64,000 nucleotides of DNA from positions 372,437 through 436,436 of the forward strand of contig CAXXPR010000002.1 in the NCBI GenBank assembly GCA_963665715.2, read 5' to 3'. Shown one piece after another: positions 4,744 through 51,006 of this stretch. Both the position numbers and the translations under genes were made by a program. The number at the start of each line of letters is the position of its first letter. Position 1 is the first letter of the stretch. This DNA is from Desulfatiglandales bacterium (GTDB taxonomy: Bacteria > Desulfobacterota > DSM-4660 > Desulfatiglandales > HGW-15). The notes under the pieces are model-generated. The model was not told the DNA's origin. It searched no databases and saw only the letters and a program-made list of their open reading frames with translations.

Positions 4744-4747
4744 TTTT

Positions 4748-11848: not shown

Positions 11849-11850
11849 GT

Positions 11851-13149: not shown

Positions 13150-13151
13150 CT

Positions 13152-14132: not shown

Positions 14133-14512
14133 TTTCTGTGAAGAACCTGAAGGCGAACTTCTTCCGCATCAAAAAAGTTTTTTGCAAAGTCAGCTACTGT
14201 CTGTGAATCGTAATATTTGCAGCTGAAAACATCCAGGTATGTTGTGTTTGACTGGTTGGCAAAATGAGCTGATATAAGTGATGTTTCAATCAGCTGGGTC
14301 ATTGAGAAACCTGCAACTCTTTCATCTTCTCCAAAGTTTACAACAGTTGTCTCGCCAAAGCGTTTCATTTCAATCAGGTCGCAGAGTTCTGCAACAAATT
14401 TTTTAATGAGATCTGCATCTCTTATTTTATCAGGGTTACATCCGTAAAGGTCAACACATGAATGGATGCCCCATGGTGCCGGTTCTGTTACTGGTAATGT
14501 GCTTAAGTTCAT
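14129..14512 (-). CDS. speD: Pyruvoyl-dependent S-adenosylmethionine decarboxylase-family proenzyme
   Basis: G.H..VDLYGC, GFS..QLIETSLISAH (self-cleavage Ser), YLDVFSCK; single-domain 127 aa. Confidence 0.85.
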   Translation of the reverse strand: MNLSTLPVTEPAPWGIHSCVDLYGCNPDKIRDADLIKKFVAELCDLIEMKRFGETTVVNFGEDERVAGFSMTQLIETSLISAHFANQSNTTYLDVFSCKYYDSQTVADFAKNFFDAEEVRLQVLHRK

Positions 14513-20509: not shown

Positions 20510-20524
20510 TGGCACCTGGTTTGC
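20510..20524 (+). promoter_or_regulatory. Sigma54 promoter of the MCP gene
   Basis: TGGCAC-CTGGT-TTGC, consensus -24/-12, 70 nt before the ATG. Confidence 0.8.
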
Positions 20525-20594
20525 TAACCTTATGTGACGACTGTTTACACCTGAGCCTCATTATATTCAAATTATTGCTGAACGGAGATGTAGA

Positions 20595-25403: not shown

Positions 25404-25865
25404 TTACTTTTTTTTCTTTGGATAAAGATCGAATACAGAGGAGGGCATCTCCTCAATTTTTTTTATATTTTCATCCAGCTCCTTTTTTACACGTTCATCC
25501 TTTTTTCCCCAGGCTCCCTCGATTTTTTCAACAAGCTCATCGATCTCGCATGGTTTTGTCAGGTAGTCATAGGCCCCCAGTTTGAGGGCTTCAATTGCTG
25601 TATCCAGAGATCCGTGCCCGGTCAGTATCAGCACCTGGGTTAAAAGCCCCAGACTGGTAATTTCCTTAAGTGTTGCTATACCGTCCAGACCCGGCATTTT
25701 TATATCCAGGACAACAACATCAAAATCCTGTCTGTCCAGTTCCTTCAGTACTTCTTCTCCGCTGTTGACTGCTGTTACCCAGTATCCCCTGTTGTTTAAC
25801 AGTCTTGCCATATTACCGGCAAAAATGACTTCATCATCAGCCAGCAGTATTCTGCTTCCAATCAT
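25404..25865 (-). CDS. Single-domain response regulator
   Basis: ILLADDE, VLDIKMPG, LTGHG, YLTKP. Confidence 0.95.
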   Translation of the reverse strand: MIGSRILLADDEVIFAGNMARLLNNRGYWVTAVNSGEEVLKELDRQDFDVVVLDIKMPGLDGIATLKEITSLGLLTQVLILTGHGSLDTAIEALKLGAYDYLTKPCEIDELVEKIEGAWGKKDERVKKELDENIKKIEEMPSSVFDLYPKKKK

Positions 25866-25906: not shown

Positions 25907-27640
25907 TTAATTCAGGTTGTCAGCTTCATGATCCAGGGGTGCAATGTCAAAGGGAAGAAACACTCTGAATTCCGTGCCTTTTCCGTAGACGCTCTGCACC
26001 GTGATATTCCCTCCCAGGTTCCGGACAATAGTGTGGCAGATGGAAAGTCCCAGACCTGTACCTTTTCCTGCAGGTTTTGTTGAATAGAACGGATCAAATA
26101 TATTTGCCATGTCCCTTTCATTGATTCCGCATCCGCTGTCTGCTATTGAAACTGAAACGCCGGATGGTGCTGTTTCCTTTCTTGTGGTTATGCTGATAGA
26201 GCCGATGGCCCTGTCGTTATGAGCATCAATGGCATTATTTATAAGGTTTAAAAATACCTGCTGCAGCTGTGAGATGTCGGATTTTATTTTCGGGAGTTTT
26301 TCATCGAGAGCTGCAGTAAACCTTATGCCGCCTGTCCTTGCGTCTCTTTCCATGAGCTCAATGATTTCCATAAGAAAGCTGTTTAGATCAACTGTCTCAA
26401 TGATTGATTTTGTTCTTCTTGAAAACCTTAAAAGATTATGGGTTATGCGTTTGCACCTGTTTGCCTGGACCGAAATCTGATCCATGGATACCATAAACTG
26501 TTTGGCAAACTCTTCGTCATTGATGTTCGTGTTCTCATACTGGTCCAGGAGAATCTGTCTTTCTGTCATTATTATGGCTATCGGATTATTTATCTCATGG
26601 GCCACACCGGCAGCCAGCTCTCCTATAGATGCAAGTTTGCCTGCCTGAAGCAGCTGTGAATTCAGGCTTTCCGCCTCCCTGTCTCTTGTCCTGATAATTT
26701 TAACCATATAACGGGTGATAAAGATTGTAACTATAAGGATGGTAAGTGCGCTTATATGAAGGAATATAAGGTTCATTTCAGTGGCATGATTTATCTCGGA
26801 AAACGCCTCATCATATTTCTGCCTTATAACAAGAAGCCATTCAGGATGTGAGAGCCATGACCTGCCGACTATATATTTATCGGAAGTTTCATCTGTGGCG
26901 TCAGCAAGGATATCTACAGCCGTACCGTTAAAATCACTGATATCAGCGGCTGATTTCTCCATTATCCTTCCGGAAAATCTGGAACTTGTCTGAAAGACTC
27001 CTTCCCTGTTTACAAGGTATACTTCTCCTGTTTCGCCTATCTTTACATTCTCGACAAGTGTTCTGAATACATCTGTGTTCACGGTTGCGCGTAAAATCCA
27101 TTTGCCGTCGGTATCAGGTCTTGCAACCGCTATGACAAAGTGAGGCTCGTTTCTGAAGCCCGTGAACATGTCGCTGATATAAATACCCTTCTGCATGACC
27201 TCTTTAAACCATGGCGTGTCGAGATAGTTTTTTTCCATGAGGTCGTAGGGGCCGATGTAGGCAAGATGATTTCCCCTGCTGCTGATAAGCCCTATGTCTG
27301 TTATGGTTCCTGAATCCCTGTTTATATTTTCAAATATGGACTGAAGATTGTCAGGAGCAAGAAGGAAATCCTTTGTGTTGGCATAGGCAATCAGTCTGAG
27401 TTTAGAGCTCTGTTCCATGAGAAACTGCTCAATAAAACGCCTGTGATTATCAACCTGGTCACTGAAGTTATGGGTTATTCTGGTCCTTGCAAAATGGGTG
27501 TAATATATTGCAAGCCCCCATCCTGCCAGGAGCAGCGGAACAAAAGAGCATATAACGGTGAGGAAGGTGAACTTTTTTAAAAGATATTTATAAAATGACT
27601 CTTTTTCTACTGGCGTCTGATTATTTTTATTATCTTTCAT
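25907..27640 (-). CDS. Cache-domain sensor histidine kinase (NtrB-like)
   Basis: Two TM helices, LAAGVAHEINNP, NLINNAIDA, DSGCG, FDPFYSTK, GTGLGL. Confidence 0.95.
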   Translation of the reverse strand: MKDNKNNQTPVEKESFYKYLLKKFTFLTVICSFVPLLLAGWGLAIYYTHFARTRITHNFSDQVDNHRRFIEQFLMEQSSKLRLIAYANTKDFLLAPDNLQSIFENINRDSGTITDIGLISSRGNHLAYIGPYDLMEKNYLDTPWFKEVMQKGIYISDMFTGFRNEPHFVIAVARPDTDGKWILRATVNTDVFRTLVENVKIGETGEVYLVNREGVFQTSSRFSGRIMEKSAADISDFNGTAVDILADATDETSDKYIVGRSWLSHPEWLLVIRQKYDEAFSEINHATEMNLIFLHISALTILIVTIFITRYMVKIIRTRDREAESLNSQLLQAGKLASIGELAAGVAHEINNPIAIIMTERQILLDQYENTNINDEEFAKQFMVSMDQISVQANRCKRITHNLLRFSRRTKSIIETVDLNSFLMEIIELMERDARTGGIRFTAALDEKLPKIKSDISQLQQVFLNLINNAIDAHNDRAIGSISITTRKETAPSGVSVSIADSGCGINERDMANIFDPFYSTKPAGKGTGLGLSICHTIVRNLGGNITVQSVYGKGTEFRVFLPFDIAPLDHEADNLN

Positions 27641-27768: not shown

Positions 27769-28428
27769 TTAACTCATATTCATTTCATTTAAACGGTATG
27801 TCAGCATACCAAGCTCAATTGAAATATCCTGACTTGCAATAACCATATTGTCCGGGACTTTTACAGGCCTTGATGCCAGATAAATAGCCGCTTTGACTCC
27901 CAGCCTGCTAAGCCTGTCTATCATACTTTGAACCTCTGACGGAGGCAGTGCTATTATGGCAATATTGTCATGTTCAGGATCAAGGGTTTCTTCAAGATCG
28001 TCGATGTGAAAAATATTCACCTGCGCCGGTATATTCCCGCTCAGATCCGTGTTTTCACAATATATCTTGTTGATGTAAAAATTATTGGACTTCAGAGTAA
28101 GTGAACTCATCAGAACTTCACTGTACTGTGTACTTCCTATAACTACCAGGCCCCATCCTTTATCCATGCCTATGATTCGGCCCAGTTCATGTTTTAATCT
28201 GGTGACCTCATATCCCAGGCCCCTTACCCCGAAACATCCGAAGTAAGACAGGTCTTTCCTTACCTGGGCAGATATACGTCCATCAATTTCAGCCAGTTCG
28301 GTGGAAGTAATGTATCGTATGCCTTTTCTTTCAAGCAGGTTTAATGTTCTGAAATAAGTTGAAATCCTTCGAATACAGGGGTCCGATATTTTTATTGTTT
28401 TTATCTCCGCGCTGATATTGCTAACCAT
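27769..28428 (-). CDS. rex: Rex-family redox-sensing repressor homolog with degenerate dinucleotide-binding loop
   Basis: RRISTY.R.L, S.ELA, AQVRKDLSYFG.FG.RG.GY.V winged helix; VIGSTQYS replaces GxGxxG. Confidence 0.85.
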   Translation of the reverse strand: MVSNISAEIKTIKISDPCIRRISTYFRTLNLLERKGIRYITSTELAEIDGRISAQVRKDLSYFGCFGVRGLGYEVTRLKHELGRIIGMDKGWGLVVIGSTQYSEVLMSSLTLKSNNFYINKIYCENTDLSGNIPAQVNIFHIDDLEETLDPEHDNIAIIALPPSEVQSMIDRLSRLGVKAAIYLASRPVKVPDNMVIASQDISIELGMLTYRLNEMNMS

Positions 28429-28496
28429 TTGTTAAATTCCTTGCTGTAAAATTTAATAACATTTCAGGTGCCGTAGGTTCCCTGCCAGGTTATATG

Positions 28497-28511
28497 GCAA
28501 AGTCCATGCCA
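28497..28511 (-). promoter_or_regulatory. Sigma54 promoter upstream of the rex-like gene
   Basis: Minus strand TGGCAT-GGACT-TTGC. Confidence 0.75.
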
Positions 28512-28729: not shown

Positions 28730-31069
28730 TTAAAAAACCTTAAGGCACTTCCAGTACTCCTTTTGGATCTCAATTGCTTTATTAAGCCCAGGCAGGCCTG
28801 CCGGGTTTTCTTTTTTTACTCTTTCAATTTTATCAGGGGGAAGAGTGGGGATGCCTGCAAGCTCCTGCATTACCCTTGATCCGCATTTTTTAATTCCGTT
28901 TATACTGTAGCCTCCTTCCATCACAAACAGGATTCTGCCTCCGCACAGTTTATCTGCAAGCTCCTTTAACATCCTTGTCATTAACGCATATCCTTCAGGT
29001 GATACATTCATCTTTCCAAGGGGGTCTTCATGAAAAAGATCAAATCCGATAGACACCATAATAATATCCGGTCTGTACTCTTCTGCCACCGGGCAAAGCA
29101 GAAAGTAGAACACCTTCTGGTAATCCAGGTCGCTTAATCCCATGTGCAGGGGGACATTAACAGTGTATCCTTTTCCTTCTCCGTTTCCTGTTTCACCAAG
29201 CTTTCCTGTGCCGGGAAAGCATGGAAACTGATGTGCCGAAAAATAAAGTACATCTTTCCTGTTATAAAATATTTTCTGTGTGCCGTTTCCATGGTGAAGG
29301 TCTATGTCAACAATCAGTACCCTCTTTGCGTTGTAATGCCTTAATGCATACTCGGCACCAAGTGCAGTGTTGTTAAAAATACAAAAGCCCATTGCCCTGT
29401 CCGGTTCCGCATGGTGCCCCGGAGGCCTGATAAATGCGATGCCCGGGGAGCCTGCCGCTGTGCTGTAAAGTGTGTCAATGAGGCTGAAGACCCCTCCTGC
29501 TGCTAGCTTTGCTGTAATGTATGTCTGTGCCGTTGTCTGTGTGTCAGGGTCAAGAGATGATATTTCAATCCCTGATGTTTTTGCCACTTTTTCAATGTAT
29601 TCTTTATTATGGCACCACAGCAGTTCATCGGCACTCGCCTGCCTGGGTGTTATGAGGGTTATCCTGTCAAAAAGATAATCCGCAGAAAGTATTTCCCTAA
29701 CTGCAGGTATTCTTTTGGAACTTTCAAGATGGAAGACCCCCTTGAGGTGCTCTTCATACCGGGCATCCCACACTACCGGTATCTCTCCTGCGCCGTTTAG
29801 AATAACAGGTGTTGTTCTGATGCTGCCTTCCTCTTTTAATCCATCAAGCAGCATTGTTGATTCCGGTATCTTCCCGGAATATTTATGGAGAAGATTCTTT
29901 GCCTCTGTTCTTAAAAACGCGTTTTTACCGGGGCCTATACATGTTGAAACAATTAGCACCGCTGCCTTTCTTTTAATGTCCTCTGCGCGGTGATGTTTTT
30001 TAAGATACCTGAACTGTGCCCTGATAATTTTTTCCATGGCCTTTTCCAGGTTTTGCGGCATGGCAGAAAGATTCATGGCCATAACTGTTATGTACAGGAG
30101 CAGTTTGCCCTGGGGCGTTTTAAGAAGGTAGCTGTAGGGGTGCCTGTAGCTGAATCCTATTGATCTGTAAAAATCGGCTGCGCCTGATTCTGCATTCAAA
30201 TATATTTCGTGAGCACGGGGCCATATCTCTTTCCACAAAAGCCATGTCCCTGCAATTATGAATGTACCGGTCCCTTTTATTCTCGGGTACATGGCTGTTT
30301 CAGGCGCTGCCGGCTTACTGTTGACAGTTGCTATATACTTTACCTCTATCACCTGGCTCATGTGCCTGTACCTTTTATCAAGCAGAATTATTCCTGTAAT
30401 TCTACCTTCTGTGACTGCGGCATAAAGCATGCAGGACATTTCCGAGATAAGAATGCTGATAAGAAAGCGGACATGAAAGTACTCAAGCTGCAGTTCTGCA
30501 GCCTGTTTTAAAGAATCAAATGAAAAAGGAAAAGGTATGAAATGAATTGTTTTACCCGGGCTTACCTCTGTACTGTAAAGGGGATCATGTTCTTCAATTT
30601 TTATCAGGCTGTCAGAGGAGGGTTCAAGCCCCTTAAGAATATCAATGACCTGTTCAGCAGACTGCCGGTGTCTTTTTATTAGAAGTGAAGATTCGGTTTT
30701 TCTGATATCTTCGACTGCCCTGTTTATTTCAAAGTTAACAAGTGTTTCAATACCTGCCCGATGAATTCTTTTTGCTGCTGACATAAAGTCAATATCCGTT
30801 TCTGCTGTCTGCAGCTTATATTTTTCAGCCAGTTCTCCGTATTTAATTACAAGCCTTTCTTCGATGGATTCTGTACCATGGCTGAAAATACTTTCCCTGT
30901 TTATTAATACTTTTTCACCTTCAAAGAAAAAGTGAAGGTCTTTTATGTTTTGAGTTTCCTGGGGAAGTATACTGCCTGTGCGCAGTAATTCTGTAAGACC
31001 GTAACCGGTTTCAGGGTCTCTTGAAGAAATGGCTGATACTGCTCTTTGCAGCAGATCCGTTGTAATCAT
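28730..31069 (-). CDS. Zn-dependent deacetylase (HDAC/AcuC/AphA family) fused to an N-terminal GNAT-like domain
   Basis: C-terminal RPPGHHA, GFCIFNN, DIDLHHGNGTQ, SIGFD, EGGY; residues ~215-306 carry YIAT..PRIKGTGT (motif A) and IYLNA...AADFYRSIGF (motif B). Confidence 0.85.
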   Translation of the reverse strand: MITTDLLQRAVSAISSRDPETGYGLTELLRTGSILPQETQNIKDLHFFFEGEKVLINRESIFSHGTESIEERLVIKYGELAEKYKLQTAETDIDFMSAAKRIHRAGIETLVNFEINRAVEDIRKTESSLLIKRHRQSAEQVIDILKGLEPSSDSLIKIEEHDPLYSTEVSPGKTIHFIPFPFSFDSLKQAAELQLEYFHVRFLISILISEMSCMLYAAVTEGRITGIILLDKRYRHMSQVIEVKYIATVNSKPAAPETAMYPRIKGTGTFIIAGTWLLWKEIWPRAHEIYLNAESGAADFYRSIGFSYRHPYSYLLKTPQGKLLLYITVMAMNLSAMPQNLEKAMEKIIRAQFRYLKKHHRAEDIKRKAAVLIVSTCIGPGKNAFLRTEAKNLLHKYSGKIPESTMLLDGLKEEGSIRTTPVILNGAGEIPVVWDARYEEHLKGVFHLESSKRIPAVREILSADYLFDRITLITPRQASADELLWCHNKEYIEKVAKTSGIEISSLDPDTQTTAQTYITAKLAAGGVFSLIDTLYSTAAGSPGIAFIRPPGHHAEPDRAMGFCIFNNTALGAEYALRHYNAKRVLIVDIDLHHGNGTQKIFYNRKDVLYFSAHQFPCFPGTGKLGETGNGEGKGYTVNVPLHMGLSDLDYQKVFYFLLCPVAEEYRPDIIMVSIGFDLFHEDPLGKMNVSPEGYALMTRMLKELADKLCGGRILFVMEGGYSINGIKKCGSRVMQELAGIPTLPPDKIERVKKENPAGLPGLNKAIEIQKEYWKCLKVF

Positions 31070-31138
31070 ATTATTATTCCGGGAGCTGGTTGTTTCCCGT
31101 TATTTTAAATAAACATTTCTCTTCAGACAAGACATGTT

Positions 31139-31171
31139 AAACGGCCTCTCTAAAAAAAAGAGAGGCCGTTT
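31139..31171. terminator. GC-rich hairpin between the REC-CBS and GNAT-HDAC genes
   Basis: aaacggcctctc / gagaggccgttt perfect 12-bp stem. Confidence 0.55.
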
Positions 31172-31294
31172 CTCTCAAGGAGACTTATGCCAAGTTATGT
31201 TGTACTGTGAGGTTTCAGTACGTCTTCCCTGAAAATATCGAAAAAAAGCCGGTGGCATTTTTCCGAAACCTTTATATATTCTTTTTTTCTGCAG

Positions 31295-32134
31295 CTATTC
31301 CCCCTTATCAAGATAATAGAGGATATCCTTAAGGCGGACTATTCCCTTAAGATATCCGAAATCTATAACCGGAAGGTAATGAATGCTGTTACTGATCATC
31401 AGCTCTGCAGCGCTGTTTATCCTGTCATCAAAGTAAAGATATAGACCCTGATGCGCGCTCATGTTGTCTTTAACTTTTTTATCCGGAAGCCATCCCGGAT
31501 TTTTTAAAAGGTCTTTCCATTCCACCTTTTTATTTATGTTCTCTTCTGCCGCTCTTATAAGGTCGCTTCTGGTTATTACTCCGCAGAGCATTCCTTCAAA
31601 ATCCGTAACATGCAGCCTTTCCCTGGCAGTACCTGACTGTGCCGGGTCAAACAGCTCAAGTGCTTTTACAAGGGGGCTTTCTTTTACAAGCGGGGTGAAC
31701 CGGATATTGCTCAGATCCCGTATTCTTTTTCTGGGCCACAGAACCGGATTTTTTCTTATCTGTTTTGCCTTTGCTGTTTCACGGATTTTGTCCGCCAGAA
31801 GTTCAATATCCTCAACCGGCTTAAAAAGATAATCAAAGGCCCCTTCACGTATTGCTCTGTTTCCTGTTTCAACATCCGCATACCCTGTGAGCATGATTAC
31901 TTCTGTGTGAGGTGATAATTTCTTAAGGCGCATCAGTAATTCTATGCCGTTCATGCCCGGCATTTTTATATCCGAGATGATTACATCAAACTGCTCTTGT
32001 AAAACTTTTTGAAGTGCGTCTTCTCCATTATATTCTGCCGCAGCTTGAAACCCTCTTGAGTTTAGAAGCCGGGCAAGATTATCTGCCAGATATCTTTCAT
32101 CATCTACTATGAGTACATTGATGGAACTTTTCAC
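31295..32134 (-). CDS. Response regulator with C-terminal CBS pair (REC-CBS)
   Basis: LIVDDE, ISDIKMPG, LTGY, YLFKP; CBS motifs LCGVITRSDL and LPVID...LKGIVRLKDIL. Confidence 0.88.
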   Translation of the reverse strand: MKSSINVLIVDDERYLADNLARLLNSRGFQAAAEYNGEDALQKVLQEQFDVIISDIKMPGMNGIELLMRLKKLSPHTEVIMLTGYADVETGNRAIREGAFDYLFKPVEDIELLADKIRETAKAKQIRKNPVLWPRKRIRDLSNIRFTPLVKESPLVKALELFDPAQSGTARERLHVTDFEGMLCGVITRSDLIRAAEENINKKVEWKDLLKNPGWLPDKKVKDNMSAHQGLYLYFDDRINSAAELMISNSIHYLPVIDFGYLKGIVRLKDILYYLDKGE

Positions 32135-32160: not shown

Positions 32161-32559
32161 CTAATTTTTATACATATGAAAAGCAAAAGTCAGGATCAGA
32201 ATAAGCAGCGCCCCGCACACAGTGTGTCCCCATTTGCCTTTTTTTACGGGCTTCGGATTATTTTCTCCCTTCGGGTTTTCAAGGTAAAGGTGCAGTCTTA
32301 AAACCGAATTATAAATCCAGTTCCAGGTCAGACTTATTATAAAAAGGACAGACAGAGCAAAAAGCAGGTGATGTCCGTTAAAGCCGGCAGACTTTAGCTT
32401 TTGGCCTATACCAGACGGGTTCAGCGGGCCTTCGGCTGTACCAAAAAATCCGAGGTAGTAAAGGCCAATGGATATGGCCAGGACTATCATGTTGTAACCG
32501 AATTTTCTTATCTGATTCTTTGTATTATCCGGGTAACCGGAATTGTCTCTGTTTTTCAT
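32161..32559 (-). CDS. Small membrane protein, hypothetical
   Basis: Three hydrophobic segments; co-oriented between the TauE and REC-CBS genes; start at 32559 chosen from an RBS-like aaggt. Confidence 0.65.
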   Translation of the reverse strand: MKNRDNSGYPDNTKNQIRKFGYNMIVLAISIGLYYLGFFGTAEGPLNPSGIGQKLKSAGFNGHHLLFALSVLFIISLTWNWIYNSVLRLHLYLENPKGENNPKPVKKGKWGHTVCGALLILILTFAFHMYKN

Positions 32560-32583
32560 AACATTACCTTTCATTTTTTTAAA

Positions 32584-32625
32584 AGGGCCGCCCGAAGTCA
32601 GAGGATTCATTTTGAGGGCGGCCCT
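32584..32625 (-). terminator. Hairpin downstream of the TauE/SafE gene
   Basis: agggccgccc / gggcggccct 10-bp stem with a short T run after it on the minus strand. Confidence 0.5.
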
Positions 32626-32643: not shown

Positions 32644-33696
32644 CTAGACACCGAGAGCTTTCATTACGTCGGGGGCCATCCTGTAGGATATAAAGGCAAC
32701 CATCAGCAGACAGTAGATCGGTACAACCCAGTTCCAGAATTTCTGCGGGAAGACCCTTGTTGCATAGGGTGCCAGAATTGCCGATCCAAGTGCCGCAAGC
32801 ATCATGGAGGGCATCAGTATAAAGTCCAGTTTAGTGCCTGTTGAGAGCATTATGAACCATACAATTGCAGCAACGGAGCTGACCGTTCCTTCCGAAATTG
32901 CTGTAACGGCAAGCTGCGCCTTTATAGGAATACCTGAGATAAGGCCGCCGATGGTAACAACCGGGCCGTATCCGCCGCCGCCGATCCCCTTGTTGAATCC
33001 TGCCAGAAACGCAAAAATACCCATTCGTTTAGGTCTGTATTCCCGTTTTCTGTCCTGTGTTTTAGCCTGGTAAACTGCCACCAGACCCATTACAAGCATT
33101 AAAAATGTTACGTAAACTTTTATCCATACCTTGGCTACTTTAAAAACTGCATAAACCGATGTTATTGAAAAAACAACCGCAAGTATCCCAAGGCCTGAAA
33201 TTAAAAGCCACAGCTTGATAGTTTCCGACATGGGGTTTAACTTCCATTCCACGTTTTCAAACTCCCTGTGCAGAAAGGTTCCTACAATCCCGCATGTGGC
33301 CTGCTGGAGCATAATGGTCGGTACAACCTGCAGCGGTGTAAAACCCATTACCATAAGCATGGGGCTCATGATTGTTCCAAAGCCCATACCTGCCGAAGCG
33401 TCCATAAATTCAAAGAACAGTCCGAGCACTACAACGTACCAGATAAGATGCCACTGGTTGGTGCCTACAAGCCCGTGACTTGTGTTGTATGCTGAATCAG
33501 CCGCCCTGCCTGTTGCCTCAAAGGGGTTGCCCGCAAGCCAGCAGGCAATACCAAAGACAATTGCAAGGGCTATAAAACCTCCAAATGCGCTTACCAGATG
33601 CCTCTTTTCAGGGATAGCCCGTTCAAGGATCGTTTTCTTTGTTTCCTCAACCTTCTGGGAAACCTCAAACCCGGTTACTTTACTCATTTCCGACAT
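32644..33696 (-). CDS. TauE/SafE (TSUP) family anion permease
   Basis: EFMDASAGMGFG and GFNKGIGGGGYGPVVT repeat motifs, many TM helices; AGGAGG RBS before ATG 33696. Confidence 0.9.
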   Translation of the reverse strand: MSEMSKVTGFEVSQKVEETKKTILERAIPEKRHLVSAFGGFIALAIVFGIACWLAGNPFEATGRAADSAYNTSHGLVGTNQWHLIWYVVVLGLFFEFMDASAGMGFGTIMSPMLMVMGFTPLQVVPTIMLQQATCGIVGTFLHREFENVEWKLNPMSETIKLWLLISGLGILAVVFSITSVYAVFKVAKVWIKVYVTFLMLVMGLVAVYQAKTQDRKREYRPKRMGIFAFLAGFNKGIGGGGYGPVVTIGGLISGIPIKAQLAVTAISEGTVSSVAAIVWFIMLSTGTKLDFILMPSMMLAALGSAILAPYATRVFPQKFWNWVVPIYCLLMVAFISYRMAPDVMKALGV

Positions 33697-33808
33697 TGTT
33701 ACCTCCTTTACATTGACCAATGTTATAAGTTCTGCTGTGAGCTCCTGTTGTATACTCTTTTATTAATATGATAGATCCGCATGAGCAGTTATCATGATGT
33801 TCCATTAA

Positions 33809-34108: not shown

Positions 34109-34123
34109 AGGCATCCTTTTTGC
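34109..34123 (+). promoter_or_regulatory. Sigma54 promoter of the antiporter gene
   Basis: AGGCAT-CCTTT-TTGC, GG-N10-GC, 60 nt before the ATG. Confidence 0.65.
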
Positions 34124-34182
34124 TCTGTATTGTAATTCAATAACTGCGTTATGATTCACACACGGATAAAAGGAGACAGTCT

Positions 34183-35242: not shown

Positions 35243-35446
35243 ATGGAAGCTCCAAAGGTTAAGGCTGTTATGAAAAGATATTCAGGGGGCGTTACCTCAA
35301 AAATAACGGTAAAGCCCTCTGATAAACTTACTGATGCAGTAAAAAGAATGCTTTTTTACAATGCCTCCAGTCTCACGGTTGAAGAGGAAGGCTGCCCCGT
35401 GGGAGTGCTTAAGCTTAAGGATGCATTAAAGGAGCTGGGGCTGTGA
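35243..35446 (+). CDS. Small single-CBS-domain protein
   Basis: V.AVM, TVKPSD.L.DAV..M, L.V.E...PVGVL...DAL; start uncertain (35222 or 35243). Confidence 0.7.
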   Translation: MEAPKVKAVMKRYSGGVTSKITVKPSDKLTDAVKRMLFYNASSLTVEEEGCPVGVLKLKDALKELGL

Positions 35447-38983: not shown

Positions 38984-39354
38984 TTTATGTGTTACCCTTA
39001 AAAATAATAATTATACGGACTCTTTCCATGGTCAAACAATCCGCAGATATCTGAAAGAAAATATAATCGCAAAGCCCGTGCCATATAATTGAAATGCTTT
39101 AATGGCGTAAAGTGGTGTATTTACATGGAATTTGATGATAGTGGGAAAGGGGACGCTGCTGGAAATGTTTAACCATTGTAAAGGCTTTTTACAATGTGGA
39201 AAACATGGGGCAGGTATATCCACAAGTTAGTTATCTTTACAGTCTGAAAAGAATATTTACATGACCTGTTGTCTACACATGAAATAATGATCCTCCCCGG
39301 CAGTTAAAACCCCTGTAAACCTGTCATACAGCGTGCTGTTACTTTTGCAGGTGC

Positions 39355-39369
39355 TGGCATAGTAATTGC
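39355..39369 (+). promoter_or_regulatory. Sigma54 promoter of the RR/HK pair
   Basis: TGGCAT-AGTAA-TTGC, 38 nt before the ATG. Confidence 0.8.
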
Positions 39370-39406
39370 TTTTTCTGATTTTACTATTCTTAAAAGGAGA
39401 TTTCAC

Positions 39407-41894: not shown

Positions 41895-42060
41895 TTTTCC
41901 CTCCTTCATAAAAAAATATACATCTATCCATCATAAGATGGTTAAAACAATGTCAGATTTTTTCTGGAGTGTTCAGCTGTAAATTAAAATTGTGTCCGCC
42001 CGGGTTAAAGCATGAGACTGTGAAGGTATGTGTGTACTGCAGATATAAAGTGGAACTTAC

Positions 42061-42375
42061 TTATAGCGTTAATGTGTTTGATCCGCTGTAAACGGGTTTT
42101 TTGCTTTTTCTTTTTTCCGTTTTATCCTGGTTTAATAATGTTACTTTCTCCATATAATTTTCTACTGCATTTCTGGAAAAATACTCCATCTTTTTTTCGT
42201 CCAGTTTTAAAGCCTGTATTGTATCCATATCGCTTTTAAGGGCATTAACATATCCGTTCATAAAAGCGATCTTGATTATTTCAAACTGGGCGTCTGAAAG
42301 ATTTGCAGATAAAGAGGAAGGAAAAATAATCATGCATACAGCAATAAATACAATTATCGGTTTCAGATTTTTCAT
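42061..42375 (-). CDS. Small exported helical protein (paralog 2)
   Basis: Signal peptide ending SLSA; FEIIKIAFMNGY motif; AGGAGG RBS. Confidence 0.7.
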   Translation of the reverse strand: MKNLKPIIVFIAVCMIIFPSSLSANLSDAQFEIIKIAFMNGYVNALKSDMDTIQALKLDEKKMEYFSRNAVENYMEKVTLLNQDKTEKRKSKKPVYSGSNTLTL

Positions 42376-42575
42376 TATTCCCTCCTTTTTGATTTATTAA
42401 ACTGTGTTCACCCTTTTATTCCCTGAAGATAATATCGGAAGATAACCGGCAACAGTTTAAAAAAAATCTCATTAGTGACCAAAATAAAGTGTTGTAATTC
42501 CAGTAAAAGATAATTTTCTTTACAAAATATTTTATCCCCGCCGTACAATAAAAGCCGATTACGCGGGAATCAGCA

Positions 42576-42695
42576 TTCGTAGAGACAGGTCTTTGACCTG
42601 TCTTGAAAGAGGGCAAGCAGCTTCAATAGCTGTCTGCAGCCATGCATCACGGATTTGCCACCATTAAAGACGGGTTAAAAACCCGTCTCTACGAA
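42576..42695. repeat. Second GTAG-type REP doublet (REPIN)
   Basis: ttcgtagagacaggtctttgacctgtctt and inverted aagacgggttaaaaacccgtctctacgaa; compensatory changes in the internal hairpins. Confidence 0.85.
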
Positions 42696-42995
42696 AATAA
42701 AAAAAGCCCGATTCCGTCTCTATATAACATTATGACATGCCCTGTTTATGGGAATGACGAAAACAAGATCGCAATATTAAGTAATTTTGAATAATTTAAC
42801 ATTATTATTTTGAATTTAAAATATTTTTTTAGGTAAAAAATCTCATTTTCATAACTTTTGCTGCTCTGCACAAGGTTTGCTAACCACCTTACTTTACAAT
42901 GGTTTCGGTGATCGAACAGCTAATATATAGATTTACATGAAAGAAAAATACTGATACAAAGCACTAAAAATTCTACAGGGTATCAGGATTGGTTA

Positions 42996-43397
42996 ATGGC
43001 ATTAATTGAAAAAGAAGTACTTGGCGATCAGGGCATCACAGTATTCAGAGTCAATGGCAAGGTTGATTTGGATGAGGTTATTGGTGAGATTTCAGCTTTT
43101 TACAAAGGCGATTTTACAAACCATACCATGTGGGATTTGACCGATGCAGATGTAACTGACTTAACCCGTGAAGAAATAGAAAAAATAGTGTCACATGCAA
43201 AAGATTTCGGTCATCTGAGAGATAACGGCAAGACCGCTTTTATAATGCCTTCAGCCCTTAAATACGGTTTGGGGCGCATGTACGACTCAATGGCCCAGGT
43301 GCTCAGCCACCCGATAACTCACGGTGTTTTTAAAGTTTATGATGATGCTGTAGACTGGGTTAATAAAATTGAGCAAAAAGAAATTCAGGATATTTAA
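42996..43397 (+). CDS. Hypothetical STAS/SpoIIAA-like alpha/beta protein
   Basis: G.V...E, WDL..AD, KTAFI.....YGL.RMY, VF...DDA..W pattern. Confidence 0.65.
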   Translation: MALIEKEVLGDQGITVFRVNGKVDLDEVIGEISAFYKGDFTNHTMWDLTDADVTDLTREEIEKIVSHAKDFGHLRDNGKTAFIMPSALKYGLGRMYDSMAQVLSHPITHGVFKVYDDAVDWVNKIEQKEIQDI

Positions 43398-43898
43398 TAA
43401 ACCTGCCTCACATAATTAAAAGTATCAGCTGTTTTAAATTTTTCCCTTCCATTTCCTGTATCTCCAAAAAAAATAAGCGGATCAGCTGCTGTCTGTATAC
43501 CTGTTCCCTTTAATGCAGATAACCATCTTGTCTGGGAGGGTGTATTTTTTAATAAAAATACGGTTATATCATTATCTGCATAATACATCGGGGATAACAG
43601 GCTGTACGAGTGACAGAAAGTTCCGCCGCTCTCAGAGGTAAAACCAGCACCTTGCATCCGCTTATTTTTGGCAGTTCCGGAATAAGCATCCTTAAAAGTT
43701 TACAGCATGTTTATTTCCGGACGGACTGAAAGTCCGTAAGTAAATAGGATTAACAACATGTATAAGCATGATCTGTGCCAGTATTGGCGGTGAGTATGTT
43801 TAATCGTTATATCAACAGGTTACAGGTTTAGTAAGGCATATTGAGAAAAGAGATGAAAAATACCGTTGGTATTTGAAGCCAGATGTTAGCTTTTTTGA

Positions 43899-44315
43899 TT
43901 ATTCTCCGATGATTTTTACCAGCACTCTTTTCTTTCTTCTTCCGTCAAATTCACCATAGAATATCTGCTCCCATGTTCCAAAGTCCAGCCGGCCCTCTGT
44001 TACTGCCACTGTTACTTCTCGTCCCATGATCTGTCTTTTCATGTGAGCATCCGCATTGTCTTCACCTACATTATGCCTGTATTGAGAAACCGGAGCATGG
44101 GGGGCAAGTTTTTCCAGCCATTTTTCATAGTCGTAGTGCAGACCTGATTCATCATCATTAATAAACACAGAAGCTGTTATGTGCATGGCATTGCATAGCA
44201 GCAGGCCCTCTTTGATTCCGCTTTCTCTTAAGCATTCTTCAACCTCAGGGGTTATGTTAATGAATGCACGCCTTGTAGATACTTCAAACCATAATTCTTT
44301 TCTAAATGATTTCAT
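43899..44315 (-). CDS. yjbQ: YjbQ / UPF0047 family protein
   Basis: [38 protein letters not shown]. Confidence 0.95.
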
Positions 44316-44390
44316 TTTATTACCTCCGGATATTTATAATAAACTCTGCTCCCATGATGTCCAGTTTTTTATAAAGAAAGCCCTGCTGGT

Positions 44391-44524
44391 GACGATAGCT
44401 GTTTTATCTTGATATTAATAAAAATTACACCTATTAATAAAAGTCTATTCAGTCTCACATACAAAGCATAAAGATCCTGAAACACCACAGGGCCTTTTCA
44501 TATAAATTTTACAAAGTTTTTTTT
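44391..44524. repeat. ~134 bp direct repeat, copy 1
   Basis: gacgatagctgtttt...aaagatcctgaaacacc.caggg...tataaatttt; about 10 substitutions plus a small indel versus 54120-54253 (counted by eye). Confidence 0.92.
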
Positions 44525-44601
44525 AGGCATCTTTCACCTTAACGAAAGACCTGTTTTATTTTTAAGTGCACAATTTATCATTAACGATTTGGTATTGTTT
44601 C

Positions 44602-44693
44602 GATTAACAAAAAAAACAGAACCCCGGAAAAAAAAGTTTCTATATATAGAAACTTTATAAATGCCTGCTAGGCGGGTTAATAACATGTTATAG
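44602..44693 (+). other. Degenerate attC or attI-like site ahead of the first cassette
   Basis: gattaac ... central palindrome aaagtttctatatatagaaacttt ... gggttaat-aacat-GTTATAG ending 9 nt before the ATG. Confidence 0.4.
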
Positions 44694-44702
44694 GAGTCAA
44701 GA

Positions 44703-45344
44703 ATGAATAAAATCATTTCATACCTCCCTTCTTTTTTGATTTTCTTTGGAGCTATCTGCGCTGCTATTGGTGGGCTTTGGACTACCCTTCGAGACACTAA
44801 TGATAAAAAAGAGTTTGAACAGAAACTTAATTCTAAAAATGAAAAAATAATTGAACTAAATGATGAAATCAAAAAATATACAGTTGGTGGAGATAACTAT
44901 CCTTTTATACAAGAATATATTGAAAAAGATAAGTGTCATTTTTCAATTTTTAATAATTCACCTAATATGTTACCTCTTTATGATGTCAATGTTTTACTTA
45001 TAAATCATGATTTAAAGAAAAAAATTGACGATGATAAAAGCATACCTCTAGTGAATAAAATGTATTTGTTAGAAAGGGAAGCGTTTAAAAGAATTTATGT
45101 TGGGTATTTGCCAGGAATTAGTGGCTTAGCCCATATTGATACTGTTGCGCTTCCTCCAAAAGAAAAAGAAATAAGATATGAAATACATATGACGGCAAGA
45201 AATACTTCTGTAGTACAAGATGTAATTATTTATTACGACAATGAATACAAACGTTACCATACAAAATCAAAACTTATAAAAGATGGCATTGAATTGTTTA
45301 ATACAATAAAGCCTAAACAAACAATAAACCCGACCAGGCGATAA
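44703..45344 (+). CDS. Hypothetical membrane-anchored protein (gene cassette 1)
   Basis: AT-rich ORF, N-terminal TM helix then coiled segment; ends inside an attC-like site. Confidence 0.75.
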   Translation: MNKIISYLPSFLIFFGAICAAIGGLWTTLRDTNDKKEFEQKLNSKNEKIIELNDEIKKYTVGGDNYPFIQEYIEKDKCHFSIFNNSPNMLPLYDVNVLLINHDLKKKIDDDKSIPLVNKMYLLEREAFKRIYVGYLPGISGLAHIDTVALPPKEKEIRYEIHMTARNTSVVQDVIIYYDNEYKRYHTKSKLIKDGIELFNTIKPKQTINPTRR

Positions 45345-45377
45345 AACGCCGCCTGGCCGTTTATCATGTCGTTAGTT
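45312..45377 (+). other. Integron attC-like recombination site
   Basis: R'' cctaaac, L'' ataaac, stem ccaggcg/cgcctgg, L' gtttat, R' GTTAGTT with attC-like spacing. Confidence 0.75.
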
Positions 45378-45384
45378 GCAGACT

Positions 45385-46092
45385 ATGAATAAAAATATAA
45401 TTTACCAAATAATAATTTTATTCTTTCTAACTGGATGCACATCAAGGCTCACAGAATATCCGGTCCTTGATGATTACTCAGTACTGGAACCGTCTGTTGT
45501 GATTGCCGTTCCTCAGAGAGTATGGGAACTTGAACCATTAAAGTTATCTGAAAATTGTTTAAGTGGTGAATATATATGTATTGATATTGACCCACCACCT
45601 CTTGGGTTTGAATATAACATCATAAAACTGATCTATGGTCCATCTTTACCAAAAACAGTAGAAGTAGCAACAACAAGTCATATAGGCATAGAACTTTACA
45701 ATACAAATAAGAAAACAAAGAAATACCCAGTCCTTATGGTTATAGGTTCAAAAGATGATAATTACATTTTGCCCAGAAATCATGTCGGCCCCATAGTAAA
45801 GCTGGTTGACGGAAATTATGTTGTGCCTATAGATCCTTTTTATGGAGAAAATACTCTATGGTGGTTTCCTTGTTATATAACTCAAGAAATCAAGCCTATT
45901 CAATTTGGTGAGTCTATAGAGTCTTTTAGCATTCCATTGGAAGAAGCTTCTGATGAAGAATTAAAATCAAAATATGCGAAAATTATAGGTGATAAAGTTG
46001 TTCCAACCCATGGAATATATTTAAAGGACATAAAAGCTTATCTTGAGAAGAATGCACCTAAAATAGAAGATTTTGAATGTGATAGAGATTAA
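45385..46092 (+). CDS. Hypothetical lipoprotein (gene cassette 2)
   Basis: MNKNIIYQIIILFFLTG-C lipobox; bracketed by GTTAGTT (45371) and its exact complement AACTAAC (46097). Confidence 0.8.
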   Translation: MNKNIIYQIIILFFLTGCTSRLTEYPVLDDYSVLEPSVVIAVPQRVWELEPLKLSENCLSGEYICIDIDPPPLGFEYNIIKLIYGPSLPKTVEVATTSHIGIELYNTNKKTKKYPVLMVIGSKDDNYILPRNHVGPIVKLVDGNYVVPIDPFYGENTLWWFPCYITQEIKPIQFGESIESFSIPLEEASDEELKSKYAKIIGDKVVPTHGIYLKDIKAYLEKNAPKIEDFECDRD

Positions 46093-46096
46093 AGAC

Positions 46097-46130
46097 AACT
46101 AACAATTTAATAAACGCGGATTTGGCGTAA
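46097..46130 (+). other. Truncated attC (left half only)
   Basis: AACTAAC-aattta-ATAAAC-gcgga, then no L'/R' half; aaaaggggtca follows at 46135. Confidence 0.6.
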
Positions 46131-46271
46131 ATATAAAAGGGGTCATCCATTAAAGGGTTAGTCAAGAGAAAAAACACCTCTCCAATAAAAACTATTCCCT
46201 ATTTTTTGAATGGCGTTTTACTTCCGCACACCACCGATGTAAGTTCATTCCTACTTTGCGCCCGAGAATGA

Positions 46272-47318
46272 AAAAGGGGTCAAGTCTGCTTTTGACTCTT
46301 GCGCACTAATTTAACAGGCGAAATCTATTATGACAAGACCACTGAGAATTCAGTATCCAGATGCATGGTATCACATAATGAATCGAGGCAGACGTGGGGA
46401 TACTATATTCAAAAGCAAAGATGATTTATCAACCTTTATTGAACTTCTTAAAGAATTAAGTGAAGTGTTTAATGTAAGGGTTGCCGCCTATTGTCTCATG
46501 TCAAACCACTATCATCTGCTGGTGCAAACTCCGGATGCCAATATATCAAGAGCGATGAGACATTTAAACGGTGTTTATACCCAGCGATATAATAAGGTCC
46601 ATGGTTATGACGGCCCGCTTTTTAGGGGCAGGTATAAATCCATACTCGTTGAACTGGACAGCTATGTACTGGAACTTGTCAGGTACATACATAAAAACCC
46701 ATTAAAAGCAGGCATTGTTAATGATATAGAGAAATATCAATGGAGCACACATAAGGCATATTTATCAAATGCAAAAAAATGGGAATGGCTGAATAAAGAT
46801 TATATTTTAAAATTATTTTCCAGTTCAAAACCCGAAAGCCTCCGCCTGTACAAACATTTTGTACTCAACGAAATTCCGGGTGATATAAACAATATATTCA
46901 CCCGAAAAAATCTTCCTGCTGTCATAGGCAGTAAGACTTTTATAGACAGGGTAAAAGAAAAGTTTTTTAACAGTAATGATTTTGAGGAAATCCCTGAAAT
47001 AAAAAGCCTTGCACCTGATATTAACAGGATAATAAAAACTGTCTGCAGGAATTATGGAATCAATGAAAAAGAATTGTATATTACGAAAAGAGGCTATTTC
47101 AATGAACCTCGTAATGTCGCTATTTACCTTATAAGATACCTGCGAAACGATACACTGAAAAATGTTGGTGAATATTTCGGGATCGATAAATACAGCACTG
47201 TAAGCAGCATTATTGAAAGAGTTAAATATAAGATGAATGCAGATAAGACATTTAATAAAAGAGTATTGTTGATAAAGGGTGAGAGTGATAAGAGTCAAAG
47301 GCAGACTTGACCCCTTTT
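46272..47318 (+). mobile_element. HUH/Y1 nuclease element bounded by 29 bp inverted repeats (STIR-like)
   Basis: Left aaaaggggtcaagtctgcttttgactctt (46272-46300); right aagagtcaaaggcagacttgacccctttt (47290-47318); one mismatch; each has an internal gtcaa/ttgac hairpin. Confidence 0.85.
46330..47310 (+). CDS. Y1 HUH transposase (TnpA-REP/RAYT-like) with C-terminal DnaA_C-like HTH
   Basis: RPLRI.YP.AWYH..NRG, AYCLMSNHYHLL (HUH), GPLFRGRYKS, RYIH.NP (catalytic Tyr), YQWS; C-terminal RNVAIYL...TL..VG..FG...YSTVS. Confidence 0.93.
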   Translation: MTRPLRIQYPDAWYHIMNRGRRGDTIFKSKDDLSTFIELLKELSEVFNVRVAAYCLMSNHYHLLVQTPDANISRAMRHLNGVYTQRYNKVHGYDGPLFRGRYKSILVELDSYVLELVRYIHKNPLKAGIVNDIEKYQWSTHKAYLSNAKKWEWLNKDYILKLFSSSKPESLRLYKHFVLNEIPGDINNIFTRKNLPAVIGSKTFIDRVKEKFFNSNDFEEIPEIKSLAPDINRIIKTVCRNYGINEKELYITKRGYFNEPRNVAIYLIRYLRNDTLKNVGEYFGIDKYSTVSSIIERVKYKMNADKTFNKRVLLIKGESDKSQRQT

Positions 47319-47495
47319 AAAAGCGTTATCAATAAAATTTTAACACCCCCCCCTCCCGTTCATTAGATATATCGCATTAAATTAGTTGACTCTAATTATT
47401 ACTTATTATATTGCTAATACAGTAATTTTTAAAAATGAAAAAGTGGCTTGTGATATAAAACAGCTGCATATGGATATTTTCAGGTATACATTATA

Positions 47496-48434: not shown

Positions 48435-48465
48435 TCCATCCCGCCCTGACTGATATCAGACTTAT

Positions 48466-48498
48466 ACAAATACGCTAATTTTTTGGACAAATACGTTA
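48466..48498 (+). promoter_or_regulatory. Probable AraC-type tandem binding site
   Basis: acaaatacgcta (48466) and acaaatacgtta (48487): direct repeats with 21 bp period upstream of the receptor gene. Confidence 0.6.
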
Positions 48499-48599
48499 GC
48501 GCATTTTTCATAATTTGACTATACAAACTAAAGTAGACAGCTTTAATAAATTTAGACACCTAACCATAAAAGGACACAAATGAATTGAAAGGATTGATA

Positions 48600-50591: not shown

Positions 50592-50605
50592 AATAATGGG
50601 GAAAT

Positions 50606-50743
50606 GGGGTCGGGCCAAGGTAACCTATTGCAATTAAATTAAAAACATTGGTGAGCCCCCTTGTTTTGGGGGCTATATAGACTTTTTTATGTCAAAAAAG
50701 AACGATATAGAAAAATAATCAAAAGGTTAGCCTGGCCCGACCC
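50606..50743. repeat. GGGGTC-ended inverted-repeat element (non-coding, MITE-like)
   Basis: gggtcgggccaaggtaacct vs aggttagcctggcccgaccc (18/20 complementary); internal hairpin agccccc/gggggct. Confidence 0.75.
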
Positions 50744-50967: not shown

Positions 50968-51006
50968 TTGACAGGTGTACCTAGTTGGCGTACGATATGA
51001 CGTACG
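50968..51006 (+). promoter_or_regulatory. Sigma70 promoter and autoregulatory operator of the TA operon
   Basis: TTGACA-17 nt-TACGAT with three GTAC-centred repeats overlapping it. Confidence 0.75.

Follow-up and report, generated by a model that had tools for sequence, protein, structure and literature searches.

A 64,000-nucleotide (nt) stretch of the genome of a Desulfatiglandales bacterium (GenBank assembly GCA_963665715.2, contig CAXXPR010000002.1, positions 372,437 to 436,436; hereafter the window) encodes a single 779-residue protein, GNAT-HDAC, in which a domain of the GNAT acetyltransferase fold is joined to a zinc-dependent deacetylase, next to a response regulator, REC-CBS, that carries a receiver domain and a pair of CBS domains. 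Combining fold modelling with residue conservation, gene fusion and fission, synteny and genome co-occurrence, we describe a conserved family of putative writer-plus-eraser enzymes that belongs to a two-component module; a structural model supports direct control of the eraser by REC-CBS. We put at about one half the probability that the writer and eraser form a chain within this co-inherited module, that REC-CBS covers the deacetylase and that phosphorylation sets the net direction of the reaction. The observations of an initial annotation of the same DNA held up, and its interpretation, a single-chain acetylase/deacetylase steered by REC-CBS in the manner of a rewired AcuABC switch, is partly supported.

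A predicted writer and eraser in one chain

The 779-residue open reading frame reported in the initial annotation was reproduced by translation, and its start codon is supported because M1 and I2 are nearly invariant in the alignment of relatives. The gene (P0001) and its domains are laid out as follows.

28730..31069 (-): GNAT-HDAC gene, 779 residues; open reading frame and translation
30581..31069 (-): N-terminal domain, residues 1-163; helices, a small three-stranded sheet and a long helical hairpin in the fold model
30113..30580 (-): GNAT-fold domain, residues 164-319, with R263-x-x-G266-x-G268, E242, E294 and Y301; fold and invariant columns
29831..30112 (-): post-GNAT helical region, residues 320-413, with an invariant P402 in an IPE motif; modelled secondary structure
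29750..29830 (-): low-confidence linker, residues 414-440; predicted local distance difference test (pLDDT) below 50
28733..29749 (-): class-II-type zinc deacetylase domain, residues 441-779; Pfam PF00850

Pfam matches the deacetylase domain alone, with nothing at E<=1 in the N-terminal 440 residues, and an NCBIfam scan of the whole protein returned zero matches. The deacetylase match (Hist_deacetyl, PF00850) spans residues 447-736 at E = 1.9e-90 (303.7 bits against a cut-off of 27.9) and is near full length, covering profile positions 1-297 of 298. The intact zinc-deacetylase motifs that had been noted in the C-terminal ~350 residues are borne out at RPPGHHAE (548-555), DIDLHHGNG (588-596), GFDLFHEDPLG (675-685) and EGGYS (718-722), and alignment to HDAC6 brings RPPGHHA, D-x-D-x-HHGNG, GFD...DP(L)G and EGGY into register. 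Seven of these positions (H552, H553, D588, D590, H592, D677 and Y721) are invariant in 40 fused relatives; we take H552, H553, D590, H592 and D677 to hold the metal-site and catalytic roles of zinc deacetylases and Y721 to be the catalytic tyrosine.

Sequence searches of the PDB gave E-values of about 1e-58 to 1e-63 for single HDAC6 domains, Arabidopsis HDAC15 and bacterial HDAH, and of about 1e-57 for HDAC10. The best 60 matches are of the HDAC6, HDAC15, HDAH, HDA1, HDAC10 and HDAC4/7 types, none of them named Bacillus AcuC, and the small-molecule enzymes of the family among the matches are HDAC10, propanil hydrolase and dimethoate hydrolase. By these matches the deacetylase is of class-II, HDAC6/HDAH-like type. 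L684 aligns with the HDAC gatekeeper position, which is lysine in the first catalytic domain (CD1) of HDAC6 and leucine in the second (CD2). A glutamate here is described as what makes HDAC10 a polyamine deacetylase (PMC5454378), and since the window protein has leucine in place of that glutamate, the gatekeeper hints at an acetyl-lysine-type pocket rather than one of the HDAC10 type.

Residues 164-319 are, in the model, a GNAT fold with a sequence too divergent for Pfam. AlphaFold2 with a 30-row alignment modelled the N-terminal 440 residues with a mean pLDDT of 81.9 and a predicted template-modelling score of 0.82. The GNAT fold runs beta1-alpha1-alpha2-beta2-beta3-beta4-alpha3-beta5-alpha4-beta6-beta7, and the superfamily's pyrophosphate-binding motif A, (R/Q)-x-x-G-x-(G/A), lies at the start of alpha3. 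The modelled domain has both this fold order (strand 165-179, helix 184-208, strands 215-248, helix 267-282, strand 288-292, helix 295-304, strand 307-316) and motif A, as R263-I-K-G266-T-G268 within PRIKGTGT (262-269), directly preceding helix 267-282; a second stretch, AADFYRSIGF (297-306), places A297, F300-Y301 and G305-F306 in alpha4. These are the GNAT motifs that the initial annotation had located at about 260-306, and the fold modelling that it had proposed as a check returns a GNAT in AlphaFold2, Foldseek and VIA-align alike. In Foldseek comparisons with the PDB, N-terminal acetyltransferases ranked best (Ard1, E = 2e-4, target TM-score ~0.6; six matches at E<=0.001). A VIA-align search of 48,161 chains gave 209 at Z>=8, of which the best 50 (Z 10.5-11.8) all cover residues 164-319 and are titled acetyltransferases, GNAT toxins or GNAT-like domains, with a few titles naming no fold; GNAT-like decarboxylase domains of SxtA and GphF are also among the structural matches. 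In the ESM Atlas the cluster of the family itself is followed by clusters of acetyltransferases, and weak Pfam GNAT matches are found in 20 of 30 relatives (Acetyltransf_10, best E = 9e-4), with Acetyltransf_7 in 15 of the 30.

The columns E242, G266, G268, E294 and Y301 are invariant both in the 40 fused relatives and in alignment A5, whose 24 rows combine the N-terminal part of the window protein and short N-terminal-domain proteins. Position 263 is arginine or lysine across the family, E242 sits on beta4 and Y301 on alpha4, and we take E242, Y301 and R/K263-x-x-G266-x-G268 to be the catalytic and CoA-binding positions of GNAT enzymes. The domain thus appears catalytically equipped despite its divergence, and acyl transfer is its predicted activity.

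Around the GNAT domain lie two regions private to the family. The unassigned N-terminus recognized in the initial annotation exists, with a length of about 163 residues in the model rather than the ~200 estimated, and a further helical stretch (320-413) follows the GNAT domain. Modelled alone, residues 1-163 reach a pLDDT of 90.7. Attempts to assign this fold failed: a wide VIA search gave generic helical hairpins only (Z<=7.3, residues 92-163), a likeness to the DHp domain of histidine kinases was rejected when DHp hairpins tied with de novo bundles, and the ESM Atlas held no usable match. In the post-GNAT region P402 is invariant in alignment A5, and P402 and E403 are nearly invariant in the alignment of relatives; the linker at 414-440 is the point at which the first gene of split relatives ends.

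As a separate observation, many relatives carry H-E-I-D-x-A at residues 111-118 (~30716-30739, -), at the start of the long helical hairpin, which recalls a kinase H-box. E114 and A118 are nearly invariant across relatives while the histidine is not, being replaced by F or Y in the window protein and its close relatives.

A small family, fused or split

A search with the N-terminal 440 residues found 36 proteins, most of ~780-815 residues with the deacetylase and some of ~431-465 residues without it. The family is small, since an exhaustive scan of 1.84 billion cluster representatives yielded only 87 at E<=0.001. A profile of the fused protein (A1), which includes the HDAC columns, was uninformative on the fusion: it found a match in 196 of 201 genomes of the order, mostly through its HDAC columns, and so counted ordinary HDAC genes.

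A pattern scan with one genome per species assembled 60 loci, mostly from metagenome-assembled genomes (MAGs) of Desulfobacterales/Desulfobacteraceae and also from Desulfarculia, Syntrophobacteraceae and Desulfatiglandales, with a few under broad or odd bin labels; the family as found here is almost confined to Desulfobacterota-type genomes. The initial annotation had held that absence of the fusion from other genomes would count against it. The pairing of GNAT and HDAC recurs, with the N-terminal part and deacetylase in one open reading frame in 32 of the 60 loci and in adjacent same-strand frames in 21, where a ~425-465-residue protein is followed by one of ~350 residues; in six more, a contig end cuts the N-terminal part or the deacetylase. 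One locus stands apart: L057:7001-8392, a second copy in the MAG of L051, encodes a 463-residue N-terminal/GNAT homologue that lacks both a deacetylase in the 7 kb downstream and a REC-CBS gene upstream; no other locus of the 60 is like it.

A quick maximum-likelihood tree of the deacetylases (midpoint root; six rows duplicate loci already present) compared 57 enzyme-linked rows with 10 stand-alone HDAC paralogues, which were taken from the genome of the window, a second genome of its genus and eight further genomes that carry the module. A branch with 100% support in the Shimodaira-Hasegawa-like approximate likelihood-ratio test (SH-aLRT) parts the two sets. Within the linked set, one group of 21 takes in 20 of the 22 split rows, and the lineages that branch off early are fused; fission was therefore mostly one evolutionary event and not assembly noise. 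The two enzymes have stayed together, whether fused or split. On another contig of the window's own genome (G000:C1:726851-727891) there is a second, stand-alone class-II-type deacetylase gene of ~355-367 residues, which falls in the separate stand-alone branch.

REC-CBS and its predicted contact with the deacetylase

The gene upstream of the enzyme encodes a receiver joined to a CBS pair, as first annotated and as Pfam confirms.

31295..32134 (-): REC-CBS response regulator (P0002), 279 residues; receiver at 31760-32134 and CBS pair at 31298-31717; Pfam
31730..31750 (-): linker N-P-V-L-W-P-R, residues 129-135; conservation and predicted interface

Response_reg covers residues 7-114 (E = 5.2e-31) and two CBS stretches follow (E = 1e-13), with no Pfam match to an ACT domain in this protein. 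The receiver has the acidic pocket, phospho-acceptor aspartate, threonine and lysine of its class (D11, D12, D55, T83 and K105, all invariant in 42 REC-CBS sequences), and the CBS domains form a tandem. Between the two lies a linker of consensus PVLWPR, in which P130 and W133 are invariant and L132 and R135 are kept in at least 90% of the 42 sequences.

We modelled two REC-CBS chains (42-row alignment) with enzyme residues 430-779 (40-row alignment), an input that mirrors the published AcuB2-AcuC arrangement. The interface score ipSAE was 0.66 (0.67, 0.66 and 0.66 across runs) against 0.00 for the best of three controls. In a benchmark, 58 of the 80 solved complexes attained this mark, as did 2 of the 110 mismatched pairs; the counts hold only roughly here, given custom alignments and three chains. 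A pass supports binding without showing it. The runs share at least 82% of contacts, with partner pLDDT of at least 90.

REC-CBS is predicted to dock on the mouth of the deacetylase active site through the PVLWPR linker and one face of the receiver. On the regulator the interface comprises residues 92-101 and 119-127, on the alpha4-beta5-alpha5 side of the receiver, together with the linker (130-142) and residues 273-274; this side of receivers is their phosphorylation-responsive face. On the enzyme it comprises 442-448, 503-511, H553, 560-562, H592, 615-627, L684 and 764-771, which form the rim and wall of the substrate tunnel, and L132 would enter that tunnel. The basic residues ahead of the linker are not conserved as lysine in the 42 sequences, which makes a plug more fitting than a substrate. 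The interface shows no enrichment of positions conserved only in the enzyme-linked HDACs (4 of 31 positions compared with 33 of 308 others), a neutral result.

A co-inherited two-component module

The genes around the enzyme in the window include the following.

32161..32610 (-): small membrane protein, 149 residues; upstream of REC-CBS in 28 of 36 loci
32644..33720 (-): TauE/SafE (TSUP) transporter; PF01925, E = 1.1e-19
27769..28428 (-): Rex-type redox-sensing repressor; NCBIfam NF003995, 166.7 bits against a cut-off of 126
25907..27640 (-): dCache histidine kinase HK1; Pfam; downstream of the enzyme in 33 of 45 loci with room
25404..25865 (-): stand-alone receiver, 153 residues; Pfam; matches of 61-72% identity follow HK1 in many loci
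35243..35446 (+): single-CBS protein, 67 residues, beside a Na/Ca exchanger gene; Pfam CBS, E = 6.1e-6 on an 84-residue open reading frame

The common order among loci runs from a sigma-54 activator and its kinase through a Na/Ca exchanger, often with the 67-residue single-CBS gene, to the TauE transporter, the small membrane protein (with no significant Pfam match), REC-CBS, a histidine kinase, the N-terminal/GNAT part with the HDAC, a dCache histidine kinase and the stand-alone receiver. Of the 43 loci that have at least 3,200 nt of upstream sequence, 41 carry REC-CBS upstream of the enzyme and on its strand; the other two are L053, a broken-up locus, and L057. In 32 of 36 loci TauE is found no more than 3.5 kb upstream of REC-CBS.

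The distance between REC-CBS and the enzyme varies with what lies between them. It exceeds 1,400 nt in 34 loci, where a ~560-residue kinase with dCache and HATPase domains intervenes, and is 700-1,400 nt in 10, which have a ~340-residue protein there (that of L012 has a HATPase domain; that of L002 gave no Pfam match). Among the 45 loci with REC-CBS a gap below 700 nt is found only in L001, the nearest relative of the window, and the window shares this short form at 225 nt. We found no orthologue of the intervening kinase in the window or the 7.6-Mb genome, where the best match is HK1 at 32-36% identity. The Rex gene, which follows the enzyme gene, is found among the 60 loci only in L001. The lineage of the window and L001 thus appears to have lost the intervening histidine kinase and gained the Rex gene.

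The lone CBS protein noted earlier at 35243 is real, by its Pfam match and by tblastn in relatives: matches of at least ~59 of 67 residues, on the strand opposite to the enzyme gene, occur in 18 loci, and weaker partial matches fall on the REC-CBS gene. It amounts to half a Bateman module, and its gene overlaps by ~20 nt the 3' end of the convergent sigma-54 activator gene.

We surveyed co-occurrence in 123 genomes of the order that are at least 90% complete. The N-terminal 440 residues are matched in 16 of them (11 of 93 high-quality genomes, 11 of 69 genera and one of seven other genomes of the same genus). Seventeen genomes have the linker-plus-CBS part of REC-CBS, namely all 16 enzyme carriers and G118, which is a 480-contig assembly; in most of them it lies on the same contig as the enzyme. 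TauE is matched strongly (E<=1e-57) in 14 of the 16 carriers and in G118, and only weakly (~1e-32) in two others. Five same-genus genomes without the enzyme have only receiver-domain matches to REC-CBS and no TauE match. From this joint distribution we conclude that the module is gained and lost as a unit, which supports a common function; because the enzyme, REC-CBS and TauE all travel together, phyletic profiles cannot assign REC-CBS to one or the other. The initial annotation had regarded a REC-CBS linkage that was not conserved as grounds for dropping its proposal, and that linkage is kept in the 41 of 43 loci and in all 16 carrier genomes.

Transcription signals and other features of the window

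Two signals lie between REC-CBS and the enzyme gene.

31139..31171 (-): perfect hairpin with a 13-bp stem and a 7-nt U loop; folding
31102..31130 (-): sigma-70-like promoter candidate TTGTCT-17-TAAAAT for the GNAT-HDAC gene; consensus match only

The hairpin, already flagged in the initial annotation, is stable on folding (centroid -23 kcal/mol, z -3.3). Its full stem is not followed by a U tract; an alternative, weaker 5-bp stem is followed by T8. The hairpin is absent from the nearest relative, L001, whose intergenic region has a similar TTGTGT, 17 nt and TAAAAT and shares with the window the leader before the start codon, so that the enzyme gene may have its own promoter in the window. No link of the enzyme gene to Rex emerged from a scan of the window with the Rex operator consensus, which gave seven matches at three mismatches, against 5.8 expected, and none better. 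The sigma-54 consensus has 30 matches in the window against 33.7 expected, and none in the region between REC-CBS and the enzyme.

Some sigma-54-type (-24/-12) matches lie ~50-90 nt upstream of genes: 28496-28511 (-) before rex, 34109-34124 (+) before the Na/Ca exchanger, 39068-39083 (-) before a PAS/dCache kinase-NtrC operon, 39355-39370 (+) before a receiver gene and, as a perfect match, 20510-20525 (+) before a chemoreceptor gene.

Farther from the enzyme, a run of genes at 10475-14512 (-) encodes an Orn/DAP/Arg-type decarboxylase, an ATP-grasp enzyme, an Acetyltransf_6 (FemAB-like GNAT) protein and an AdoMet decarboxylase and resembles a modified-polyamine pathway; it lies 14 kb from GNAT-HDAC, with housekeeping genes between. 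A row at 349-8103 (-) encodes an HdrA-like flavoprotein with Fe-S domains (1,061 residues), a CCG-domain Fe-S protein and a small ferredoxin-like open reading frame, and continues with an aldehyde:ferredoxin oxidoreductase and an IclR regulator. At 46330-47310 (+) an IS200-like Y1 transposase domain and a DnaA C-terminal helix-turn-helix share one 326-residue open reading frame, within a low-GC stretch at ~42000-51000 (GC 0.33-0.38 against ~0.42-0.45 elsewhere).

Relation to known systems

The closest functional parallel is the AcuABC system. The published study reports that AcuA, a GNAT, and AcuC, a zinc deacetylase, act on acetyl-CoA synthetase, and that AMP-bound AcuB, a Bateman module with an ACT domain, binds AcuC (half-maximal inhibitory concentration ~38 nM), blocks access to its active site and inhibits it; according to it there is no AcuB-AcuC structure, crystals not having been obtained (PMC13121692). 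In both systems a GNAT, a CBS protein and a zinc deacetylase are encoded together, and the modelled REC-CBS sits on the same kind of deacetylase site as AcuB on AcuC. The differences are several. Here the writer and eraser form one chain or two adjacent genes; the deacetylase is class-II, HDAC6/HDAH-like and not AcuC-like by the names of its PDB matches; a receiver replaces the ACT domain of AcuB, and the modelled contact uses the receiver face and the linker; and TauE, the small membrane protein and two or three kinases are extra members. An acsA-type or other AMP-binding enzyme was not found among 47 of the 48 window open reading frames of at least 90 residues, the one left out being the open-ended frame at 59040-63998. 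The module is an analogue of AcuABC and not an orthologue or member, and the earlier description of a rewired AcuABC switch stands for the parts list and perhaps for the logic of control but fails for family membership, given the lack of an ACT domain and a synthetase neighbour, the class-II deacetylase and a GNAT that curated models do not recognize.

The catalytic domain is shared with HDAH (Alcaligenes/Bordetella FB188), Pseudomonas HdaH and HDAC6 (E ~1e-58, all motifs aligned), whereas those proteins are without the 440-residue N-terminal extension, and the HDACs linked to it form a branch of their own. Pat/PatZ and the cAMP-regulated mycobacterial Pat also join a GNAT to large regulatory regions tied to cellular signals, and their erasers are separate sirtuins. 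The regulatory domains of those proteins are NDP-forming CoA-ligase-like or cNMP-binding, and are unrelated to residues 1-163 here by Pfam and the VIA search. The logic of opposing activities in one chain, with an input that sets the direction, is that of GGDEF-EAL proteins, Rel/SpoT, GlnE and bifunctional histidine kinases, an analogy in which chemistry and folds differ. A literature search gave no published acetylation example of this logic and no description of a GNAT-HDAC fusion or of a REC-CBS partnership, in keeping with the earlier remark that the architecture was not recognized as characterized. In the main text of a 2024 survey of bacterial classical deacylases, terms for a GNAT fusion and 'Desulf' do not occur, while its supplements may list such architectures (PMC11532494).

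A proposed mechanism and its alternatives

In the mechanism that we favour, at the even odds given above, the module comprises TauE, the small membrane protein, REC-CBS, a histidine kinase lost in the window, GNAT-HDAC, the dCache kinase and the stand-alone receiver. GNAT-HDAC would add and remove an acetyl, or other acyl, group on one and the same target, which we infer to be a protein. REC-CBS would bind the deacetylase through its alpha4-beta5-alpha5 face and the PVLWPR linker and cover the active-site entrance, inhibiting removal; phosphorylation of D55 by the kinases of the cluster, and possibly binding of adenine nucleotides by the CBS pair, would determine if the eraser is blocked, and with it the net direction of acetylation. 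A more specific form, in which the protein is a lysine acetyltransferase/deacetylase whose eraser is plugged in pseudo-substrate style by PVLWPR, with kinase and adenylate jointly setting the acetylation of the target, we put forward only tentatively.

Several observations weigh against the favoured mechanism. The GNAT Pfam models do not match the window protein at E<=1, and a family profile run against the PDB reached GNATs only at E 0.09-0.9, with 6 of the 16 listed matches labelled acetyltransferase. The enzyme side of the complex model is the HDAC domain only. Its interface consists mostly of universal active-site rim residues common to these deacetylases and shows no subfamily enrichment, so that docking could reflect a general liking of HDAC pockets for the loop, and memory of solved HDAC-peptide complexes could bias the model. 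The hairpin and promoter-like site part REC-CBS from the enzyme gene in the window, a kinase-type gene stands between the two in 44 of the 45 REC-CBS loci, and TauE co-occurs with the cluster almost as tightly as REC-CBS does, so that REC-CBS could serve the transporter instead. The idea of a single-chain acetylase/deacetylase steered by REC-CBS is thus favoured by the conserved pairing and the modelled contact with the HDAC, and disfavoured by the intervening kinase gene and the co-occurrence of TauE.

That last point leads to an alternative in which REC-CBS mainly gates the TauE transporter or the 149-residue membrane protein, and the enzyme is controlled otherwise, for instance by the stand-alone receiver or by acyl-CoA levels. 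CBS domains regulate many channels and transporters, and in the window the TauE, membrane-protein and REC-CBS genes are packed at 33 and 26 nt with the enzyme set behind 225 nt and a hairpin; the position of TauE near REC-CBS in most loci and its strong matches in most carrier genomes and G118 point the same way. Yet in four of 36 loci REC-CBS, kinase and enzyme occur together with no TauE next to them, one genome (G082) has the enzyme and REC-CBS with no TauE match at E<=1e-30, and the complex model favours contact with the deacetylase (0.66 against 0.00 for the control). We consider this alternative unlikely as the main role of REC-CBS; control of the enzyme and gating of the transporter are in any case mutually compatible.

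Two further alternatives concern what the enzyme itself does, and we regard each as improbable. In one, the HDAC would deacetylate an N-acetylated amine, such as a polyamine or an amino-sulfonate moved by TauE, and the GNAT would re-acylate it or a related compound, in the way that the lipid A, Nod factor and mycothiol pathways first deacetylate and then acylate. The conservation of both catalytic sets would suit such a cycle, as would the small-molecule enzymes HDAC10, propanil hydrolase and dimethoate hydrolase among the PDB matches and the fixture in the module of a TSUP/TauE transporter and two dCache sensor kinases, whose sensing domains are of a small-molecule type; but the module has no conserved genes for making or breaking down such compounds, its other members are signal-transduction machinery, and the gatekeeper is the leucine of acetyl-lysine deacetylases rather than the glutamate of HDAC10. 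In the other, the GNAT domain would bind acyl-CoA as a sensor or scaffold, and in that role tune or target the deacetylase, making the protein an eraser with a regulatory head. Its great divergence, with profile matches below threshold, its position between two private helical regions and the presence of non-transferase GNAT folds (the SxtA and GphF decarboxylase domains) among the structural matches are consistent with this, and what speaks against it is that E242 and Y301, on which GNAT catalysis usually relies, are invariant alongside the CoA-binding loop R/K263-x-x-G266-x-G268.

Implications

Residues 1-440, for which Pfam and NCBIfam have no model, would define a new protein family. Nearly all that is known of reversible bacterial acetylation comes from separate writers (GNATs) and erasers (sirtuins and a few zinc deacetylases). 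If the more specific, pseudo-substrate form of the mechanism is true, the module would wire two-component signalling directly to protein acetylation, and its deacetylase would be the second known bacterial classical deacetylase under the control of a CBS protein, after AcuB-AcuC. The family occurs in fused and split versions that can be compared, its dedicated partner would sense phosphorylation and possibly nucleotides, and the predicted interface is concrete and open to mutation, with L132 and W133 set against the active-site rim; if the model holds, crosstalk between phosphorylation and acetylation would become testable with three purified proteins.

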